A stretch of DNA of 64,000 nt, taken from assembly GCF_050920415.1 (NCBI RefSeq), contig NZ_CP169309.1. One strand, written 5' to 3'. Positions 8,560-8,725 of this stretch are shown piece after piece. Under the pieces are notes generated by a model. The model did not search any database. It was given only the letters and a program-made list of their open reading frames with translations, and was not told the origin of the DNA. The DNA is from Escherichia coli. GTDB taxonomy: Bacteria; Pseudomonadota; Gammaproteobacteria; Enterobacterales; Enterobacteriaceae. A program made the position numbers and the translations under genes. Every line of letters begins with the position of its first letter. Within the stretch, counting starts at the first letter, position 1.

Positions 8560-8725
8560 CAACAAAACCGGTCATGTCCGGCTTACATGTCTATTTTTTG
8601 TTCATGTCCGGTTCACAGAAAACCTGTTTTTATATTTTTCATATAGTTAACTTGAAGAGAAACCGGACATGGATCCCGGAAAATTTTCATAAATAGCGAA
8701 AACCCGCGAGGTCGCCGCCCCGTAA
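8560..8725 (-). other. cos site: cosN cohesive end (8709-8720) plus cosB-like repeats (CCGGACATG family) upstream of Nu1
   Basis: Minus strand reads GTTACGGGGCGGCGACCTCGCGGGTTTTCGCTATTTATGAAAATTTTCCGG, matching the lambda cos sequence as remembered. Confidence 0.8.

Follow-up and report, generated by a model that had tools for sequence, protein, structure and literature searches.

A lambda-like cos with a divergent set of cosB boxes in an stx2g prophage of Escherichia coli

If a phage has the cohesive end of lambda, must its DNA also be recognized as lambda DNA is? The question is raised by positions 8560–8725 of a 64,000-nucleotide stretch of Escherichia coli DNA (assembly GCF_050920415.1, contig NZ_CP169309.1; hereafter the window), where a cohesive-end site, cos, with the cosN of lambda is followed by unfamiliar repeats and the genes for the small and large terminase subunits, terS and terL. 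We favour, with a probability of about 0.8, the reading that this is the cos of a lambdoid prophage carrying the Shiga toxin genes stx2g, and that it joins a lambda-type cosN to a different cosB, which would be read by a different DNA-binding domain of TerS. The specificity of this cosB/TerS pair is probably undescribed.

Where the identity to lambda ends

The phage reads along the minus strand of the window, and we number phage positions from +1 at window position 8720. The predicted cleavage site, cosN, has the 12-nt cohesive end GGGCGGCGACCT (8709–8720, minus strand; +1 to +12), which is identical in lambda and phage 21. On its left, 25 of 30 bases are those of lambda, among them the cosQ heptamer GGGTCCT (8744–8750, minus strand; −30 to −24, or 24–30 bp left of the nick site), which is the same in phage 21 and at lambda positions 48473–48479 and is kept in all relatives, distant ones included. 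On its right, the I2 spacer between cosN and cosB (8676–8708, minus strand; +13 to +45) matches lambda at 33 of 33 bases, and identity to both lambda and phage 21 ends at +46. The preliminary description of this DNA had given cosN and about 40 flanking bases as those of lambda and had proposed alignment to the lambda and phage 21 cos sites as a check; that alignment bears the claim out, with cosN the same in all three and the match stopping at +46.

The other hallmarks of a lambda-like cos are also in place. The flanks of the 12-nt 5′ cohesive end are conserved and show partial symmetry, cosQ lies about 30 bp upstream of cosN, repeated candidate TerS sites occupy the interval between cosN and terS (an R3, an inverted R2 on the far side of a candidate site for integration host factor (IHF), and a third site), and genes that Pfam assigns to the Nu1 family of TerS and the gpA family of TerL are adjacent. 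Judged by these features, the region is a genuine, well-formed lambda-like cos.

The repeats themselves are not those of lambda. The R3-type box, CATGTCCGGTTT (8660–8671, minus strand, forward; +50 to +61), stands at the position of the annotated R3 of phage 21 and is found at +48/49 in diverged relatives. The R2-type box is an exact copy of CATGTCCGGTT, inverted with respect to R3 (8603–8613, plus strand; +108 to +118), and coincides with R2 of lambda and the annotated R2 of phage 21. The third box, CATGTCCGGCTT (8573–8584, plus strand; +137 to +148), is inverted like R2 and contains an exact CATGTCCGG. It shares a CATG with a degenerate forward copy, CATGaCCGGTTTT (8564–8576, minus strand; +145 to +157), which has one mismatch; most E. 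coli variants have this copy, several have a changed form of it, and it is missing from two.

Exactly three copies of CATGTCCGG occur in the window, all within 8573–8671, against 0.47 per window in shuffled sequence, and the four sites with at most one mismatch to CATGTCCGGTT all fall within 8566–8671, an interval of about 105 bp; allowing two mismatches brings the number to chance level (20 found, 17.1 expected). The excess of exact copies and the clustering of the near-exact ones therefore indicate that the repeats are real and not a product of chance. The box scan found no remote box-like sequence inside terS of the kind that N15 has as rR2.

The spacing of these elements is that of known cosB sites. 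The GenBank annotation of phage 21 places R3 at +50 to +65, I1 at +72 to +86, R2 at +107 to +122 and R1 at +150 to +165; our own count along the lambda sequence gives approximately +50 to +65 for R3, which is also the published position (PMC9026076), +108 to +123 for R2 and +151 to +166 for R1. R3, I1 and R2 of the window are displaced by no more than 3 bp from the sites annotated in phage 21, R2 being inverted in both, and the architecture matches the R3-I1-R2-R1 scheme of lambda-type cosB (PMC9026076). The earlier impression that the repeats between cosN and the Nu1-like gene differ from those of lambda is confirmed.

The I1-like candidate IHF site, TTTCATATAGTTA (8637–8649, plus strand, which is the phage bottom strand; +72 to +84), has two mismatches to the consensus WATCAANNNNTTR, as does the best positionally equivalent site of lambda (+74 to +86); the annotated I1 of phage 21 has one. 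A scan of the window for the consensus at up to one mismatch returned a chance-level count, with none in the interval from R3 to R2, so that the assignment of I1 is based on homology of position and on the perfect consensus sites that Klebsiella, E. coli and Salmonella relatives have at these coordinates on this strand.

For a broader view of conservation we drew on 241 loci with close TerS relatives in IMG/VR, which together with later scans gave 54 distinct cos sequences sharing the same TerS N-terminus; a profile search of genome contigs with the family alignment yielded five loci and added little, the IMG/VR scans being the useful source. Throughout the 54 variants the 17 bp around R3 (CCATGTCCGGTTTCTCT) are invariant and the I1 region is nearly so, while R2 and the core CCGGACATG of the third box are at least 95% conserved, this core being kept even in two relatives whose downstream sequence has been replaced. 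The spacers ahead of R2 and of the third box vary freely. As far as this pattern of substitution goes, the cosB boxes are under purifying selection.

Boxes that follow the N-terminal domain of TerS

Beyond the boxes lies terS (8033–8542, minus strand), which has a GTG start and encodes a Nu1-family protein of 169 residues. The Pfam profile Phage_Nu1 covers residues 49–150 only (profile positions 62–163), so the part of the profile that corresponds to the lambda DNA-binding domain is unmatched. Comparison with individual phages gives the same picture. BLASTP aligns residues 64–166 with gp1 of phage 21 at 40% identity and finds no similarity to gp1 before residue 64, and in tblastn searches of phage genomes lambda, 434, phi80, N15, 21 and Gifsy-1 align only from residue 59–73 onward (lambda over 73–164 only, at 46% identity, and N15 over 59–164 only). 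The only full-length tblastn matches are five PhiR12 phages (99.4%), Pseudomonas phage LPPA33 (43%, over residues 1–164), Aeromonas phages and one E. coli phage. We considered a recent chimera, in which a foreign domain had been placed on a lambda C-terminus, and found it unsupported, TerS being about equally far from lambda and from LPPA33 over the stretches that align.

An AlphaFold model of residues 1–58 (26 diverse family members; confidence, pLDDT, 87) has helices at residues 4–10 and 15–22, a β-wing at 23–37 and a further helix at 38–54. Its best structural matches are the TerS DNA-binding domains 7LW0 and 7LWR, the RdfS excisionase, RacA, MerR regulators, the Rpp/TerS structures 6HLK and 6HN7, and gpNu1 itself (1J9I, TM score 0.65). 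At the sequence level the commonest Pfam matches in the family are HTH_17, found in 15 of the 26 N-termini with a best E of 1.7e-5, and MerR, found in several, and a sequence search of the PDB with the N-terminal profile gave weak generic helix-turn-helix (HTH) matches only, to a sigma factor and a designed repeat protein. The model thus predicts that residues 1 to about 55 form a winged HTH of the general type of gpNu1, with residues 15–22 as recognition helix; by sequence, the domain is too diverged to count as a member of the gpNu1 family.

The link between this domain and the boxes comes from diverged homologues. We recovered their upstream DNA and tabulated the box against the TerS N-terminus, which gave 27 distinct N-terminal variants with a detectable box. 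The core TCCGGTT is common to the whole TerS family, down to 33% identity, and the base ahead of it varies with residue 20 of the predicted recognition helix: all eight variants with Arg20 have TGTCCGG, among them proteins from Citrobacter, Enterobacter and Leclercia and a distant metagenomic one that is 38% identical (L182), and all 19 with Asp, Asn, Lys, Ser or Thr at this position have TTCCGG. One further Arg20 protein (L229) is preceded by CGTGTCG, without TCCGG.

Homologues in which the two halves of TerS have diverged to different degrees separate the domain from the rest of the protein. In P0010, from Klebsiella, which is 94% identical to the protein of the window in residues 64–169 and 68% identical in residues 1–50, Asp20 goes with CATTTCCGG boxes; in P0034 and P0036, with identities of about 60% for the C-terminal part and 70–76% for the N-terminal part, Arg20 goes with ATGTCCGG boxes. 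Box type therefore follows the N-terminal domain of TerS and not its C-terminal part. Moreover, in the hhalign register Arg20 corresponds to Asn21 of lambda, whose box has TTTCC, and to Arg21 of phage 21, whose box has TGTCGG, so that the same pairing of residue and base recurs in a second lineage.

The covariation of box and residue 20 is the strongest available evidence from which we infer that the boxes are TerS binding sites, and it suggests a direct contact between the arginine and a guanine. The preliminary description had held the repeats to be consistent with a Nu1 of altered specificity, and this proposal gains support from boxes that track the recognition helix and from an N-terminus unmatched by Nu1 or gp1, the specificity itself being read from sequence.

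Put together, these elements suggest how the site would work. Because cosQ, cosN and I2 are as in lambda and phage 21, one would expect the staggered nicks of the large terminase to fall at the same 12 bp. The winged HTH of TerS (residues 1 to about 55, helix 15–22) would bind the CATGTCCGGTT boxes, and an IHF bend at I1 (+72 to +84) would bring R3, forward at +50, together with R2, inverted at +108, as modelled for lambda, in a complex that would anchor TerL on cosN. The third box, with its overlapping forward copy (+137 to +157), would be an accessory site like R1 of lambda, and the variation of the third site in orientation and position among relatives fits such a role. We infer each of these activities (binding, bending, cleavage and specificity) from sequence. 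Neither the boxes nor the domain are those of lambda, 21 or N15, and the prediction is accordingly that the phage packages its own DNA and stays insulated from lambda-type terminases resident in the same cell.

A possibly mobile cassette, its hosts and the competing readings

The divergence extends past cosB and terS into the start of terL (6133–8061, minus strand; 642 residues, Pfam GpA_ATPase and GpA_nuclease), which begins at 8061 and overlaps terS by 29 nt. TerL is 93% identical to gp2 of phage 21 over residues 17–642 and 66% identical to gpA of lambda, and the residues in which it departs from gp2 cluster towards the N-terminus. In a sliding comparison of the DNA, identity to lambda and phage 21 is about 86% at −43 to +16 and 17–57% from +74 to about +765, and identity to phage 21 is then mostly 80–100% from about +830, with dips to 63–77% near +1000–1100. 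These values delimit a divergent cassette of about 0.75 kb (7950–8675, minus strand) that comprises cosB, the whole of terS and the 5′ end of terL and aligns to neither lambda nor 21. A recombination junction is visible within terL at about 7900–7950 (minus strand), downstream of which most of the DNA is 80–100% identical to the phage 21 head operon. By DNA identity, then, a cosB-terS-5′ terL unit is set between a cosQ-cosN-I2 segment like that of lambda and 21 and a head module of the 21 type. In lambda the corresponding unit comprises the site that is recognized, its reader protein and the part of TerL to which the TerS C-terminus binds. It is also the unit that the Feiss laboratory swapped to build its 21 and N15 hybrid helpers (PMC4669245).

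One peculiarity of the window lies in the terS leader. From the end of the cohesive end to the terS start (GTG, 8542) we count 166 nt, against 178 in lambda, and terS starts at +179, against +192 to +197 in relatives. Missing is a duplicated segment of 16–17 bp, GxGAGGTGAG(AGTTTTT), that would stand just before the ribosome-binding site (window 8543–8560, minus strand); most relatives have two tandem Shine-Dalgarno-like copies of GAGGTGAG in this leader. In the window the ribosome-binding site is GAGG/AGGA, ahead of the GTG start. The deletion is private to the window and one other locus (L048), and we therefore rejected a short cosN-terS distance as a feature of the class. The shortened region, earlier given as 167 nt, thus stands as a measurement and falls as a class feature. 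A second deletion was observed in L013 (IMGVR_UViG_2675903621_000013), where the segment between R2 and the third box is gone and the two direct repeats are fused, as expected from recombination between direct repeats; it recalls the unequal crossing-over from which the simple cosB of N15 has been proposed to arise (PMC4669245).

The prophage carries an stx2g operon about 5.2–6.5 kb upstream of cos (13963–15204, minus strand), with an A subunit of 319 residues that scores 747.4 against the NCBIfam Stx2g cut-off of 736 and a B subunit of 89 residues, and is therefore Shiga-toxin converting. Ahead of the operon are tRNA-Met(CAT), tRNA-Arg(TCG) and tRNA-Arg(TCT) (15293–15540, minus strand), and just upstream of cosQ, on the opposite strand (8920–9132, plus strand), is an open reading frame for 70 residues of the DUF3950/YlcI-YnfO family, which may resemble the small reading frame at the right end of lambda. 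The best long matches to the window are stx2g prophages at about 96% identity, and a 451-bp cos region is 100% identical in the stx1a prophage of strain N96, with different flanks. In N96 (L232, 29241–32408) the gene for the tail tube is split by ISEc10, and in strain MFDS1022581 (L233) terS, terL and the lysozyme gene are frameshifted. We rejected carrying the N96 insertion over to the window, one prophage being stx1a and the other stx2g, with different flanks.

The class is common. A 120-nt cosB query found it in 1099 of 5426 complete E. coli genomes, O157:H7 included, and none of the 12 matches listed had an annotated feature under it. Five Escherichia phages, PhiR12_1 to PhiR12_5 (recorded hosts E. 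coli K-12 and C), have a TerS that is 99.4% identical and the same three boxes, from which it follows that the system works in live phages; their sequence records do not start at cos.

Cohesive ends and cosB layouts vary among relatives. Four members of the TerS family (L086, L087, L089 and L177) retain cosQ and an I2-like TATTTATGAAAATTT and have cohesive ends unlike that of lambda, for instance GGGCGGCAGCGT in a relative from Salmonella and GGGCGCTAACCC in one from Enterobacter, so that cosN varies independently of box class. The record of Aeromonas phage phiARM81ld starts with GGGCGTTAGACC (GGGCG..., a lambda-like left end) and has the box CATTTCCGGTT at +52 to +62 and a TerS with Asn20. 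Five distant loci of Pseudomonas, Aeromonas and alphaproteobacterial type (L181, L219, L225, L234 and L235) have a short leader and a single or tandem TTCCGGTTCCGG box directly before terS, with no obvious IHF site or inverted copy, a simple cosB that recalls N15.

Several observations weigh against our reading of the site. Compared with lambda and 21, the R3 core stands about 3 bp closer to cosN, and in lambda 3-bp deletions in the R3 spacing are severe (PMC9026076). The third box is inverted and quasi-palindromic where R1 of lambda and 21 is forward. The I1 candidate departs from the IHF consensus at two positions; the fold matches of the N-terminal domain are not statistically significant (best E 0.3, for a small domain); the hhalign alignment to the lambda- and 21-type domains, of residues 5–31 on 6–31, is weak (E 0.0023, probability 13%); and the covariation counts are not phylogenetically independent. 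Finally, the window stops short of the tail genes, and the copy is seen in it only in part.

One competing reading is that the site is the inactive relic of a defective prophage, as the decay seen in N96, with its ISEc10 insertion, and in the frameshifted MFDS1022581 might lead one to expect. We consider this unlikely: terS (169 residues) and terL (642 residues) are intact, every cos element is the family consensus, and the one unusual feature is the loss of 16–17 bp from the leader of terS. Even in a defective host element, what the site is would stay the same.

It is also improbable that the boxes are simply diverged R sequences of the phage 21 type and that the 21 terminase would package this DNA. 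The phage 21 R boxes, CGTGTCGG, CATGTCGG and CATGTCGG, do share CATGTC..GG with the boxes of the window, both recognition helices have an arginine at the aligned position, and TerL and the head module are of the 21 type. However, the boxes here have a 1-bp insertion (TCCGG against TCGG) and a different 3′ flank (TTT against nCCTT), R3 is shifted by 3 bp, the DNA-binding domains of the two TerS proteins share no BLASTP similarity, and the N-terminus of TerL has been replaced as well; between lambda and 21, whose boxes differ less than this, discrimination exceeds 1000-fold (PMC4669245).

That the repeats are not terminase sites at all, binding instead a regulator of late-operon transcription or the redirecting protein of a satellite, or serving as targets of a methyltransferase or restriction enzyme, has in its favour that the boxes contain CCGG and CATG and that satellites known as phage-inducible chromosomal islands (PICIs) pair a lambda-like cosQ and cosN with a different cosB read by another protein (PMC6739421), but is very improbable given boxes that co-vary with the TerS recognition helix and follow its N-terminal domain rather than the rest of the locus, R3 and R2 positions and an inverted orientation that are kept around an IHF-like site, and a complete adjacent terS-terL pair that marks a phage and not a satellite.

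A lambda-type cosN with its own cosB and TerS domain thus remains our preferred account of the site. Going further, we lean modestly towards the view that this cosB and TerS domain constitute an undescribed class of packaging specificity beside those of lambda, 21 and N15, with a sister class (TTTCCGG in place of TGTCCGG, and Asp or Asn in place of Arg at residue 20), present in about a fifth of E. coli genomes, Shiga-toxin prophages among them, as a cassette of about 0.75 kb that moves between head modules.

Packaging specificity decides which DNA is encapsidated when several lambdoid prophages and satellites share a cell, the normal state in Shiga-toxin-producing E. coli (STEC). Its diversity has looked "modest" to the Feiss laboratory (PMC4669245), and a common, unannotated class would widen the picture of three documented specificities while leaving the known mechanism unchanged. 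The clear box motif lets annotators find the cos ends of these prophages and, with the covariation of one residue and one base, offers a compact experimental handle on recognition of DNA by TerS. Were the proposal true, one arginine-to-guanine contact would act as a simple switch of specificity that lends itself to testing, and it would be the cassette that decides which of the prophages and satellites sharing an STEC cell are open to cross-packaging.

Comparison with documented packaging specificities

Three packaging specificities are documented for lambda-like cos phages in the searchable literature, lambda, 21 and N15, the last of which also takes in Monarch (PMC4669245, PMC9026076), and PICI cos sites are read through Rpp (PMC6739421, PMC9026076). 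Searches on the motif, on cosB of prophages or O157, on PhiR12 and on the cos of phiARM81ld found no description of these boxes or of this cosB class in the searchable literature, outside which papers in subscription journals lie.

With lambda the site shares an identical cosN, cosQ and I2 (+13 to +45), the order R3-I1-R2 at nearly the same positions, terS and terL that follow directly and overlap, the C-terminal part of a Nu1-family TerS, and a TerL at 66% identity. It differs in its boxes, which are CATGTCCGGTT where those of lambda are CGTTTCCtTTCT, in the inverted third box, in an R3 core about 3 bp nearer cosN, and in a TerS DNA-binding domain without detectable sequence similarity to that of lambda. 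The lambda specificity class, defined by CGTTTCCtTTCT-type R boxes and a gpNu1-type domain, does not take in this site: nothing aligns past +45, and the Nu1 profile misses residues 1–48.

N15, too, combines a lambda-like cosQ and cosN with a recognition element for its own TerS, and distant members of the present family likewise have a single or tandem box. The cosB of N15 is simple, with a single R3 and a remote rR2 in gene 1, whereas that of the window has three sites and an IHF-like site. Three clustered boxes, none of them in terS, and a TerS match confined to residues 59–164 place the site outside the N15 class by layout and by TerS.

The PICI EcCICFT073 offers a parallel of another kind, a lambda-like cosQ and cosN joined to an unrelated cosB that is recognized via a different winged HTH (PMC6739421, PMC9026076), and the fold matches of the domain described here include 6HLK and 6HN7, the structures of Rpp/TerS. 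In the window, however, the alternative domain lies within the phage's own TerS, no Rpp is involved, and a full terS-terL-head module is present. An Rpp-dependent cos belongs to a satellite without terminase genes; here terS, terL and head genes are adjacent.

TerS itself goes with a family that has the N-terminus MATQxEVA (PHROG 57) and includes the proteins of PhiR12_1 to PhiR12_5, LPPA33 and phiARM81ld; these phages share its N-terminal domain and, upstream of terS, the box core TCCGGTT. The records of these phages differ in that cos and R boxes are unannotated, and the distant members have a simple cosB and other cohesive ends.

Phage 21 remains the most instructive comparison. Like 21 in relation to lambda, the window shares cosQ and cosN and has a private cosB and TerS domain; its TerL is 93% identical to that of 21 and its head module is of the 21 type, its box core is similar (CATGTC..GG), and an arginine occupies the aligned position of the recognition helix. 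It differs from 21 in the 1-bp insertion and other flank of the box, in the replaced N-terminus of TerL, and in a TerS N-terminus that BLASTP finds unrelated, the 40% identity being confined to residues 64–166. With an extra C and another flank in its boxes and a gp1 alignment limited to residues 64–166, the site appears to fall outside the phage 21 class, that of CATGTCGGnCCTT-type R boxes and a gp1-type domain. By analogy, what it functionally most resembles is the situation of phage 21 versus lambda.
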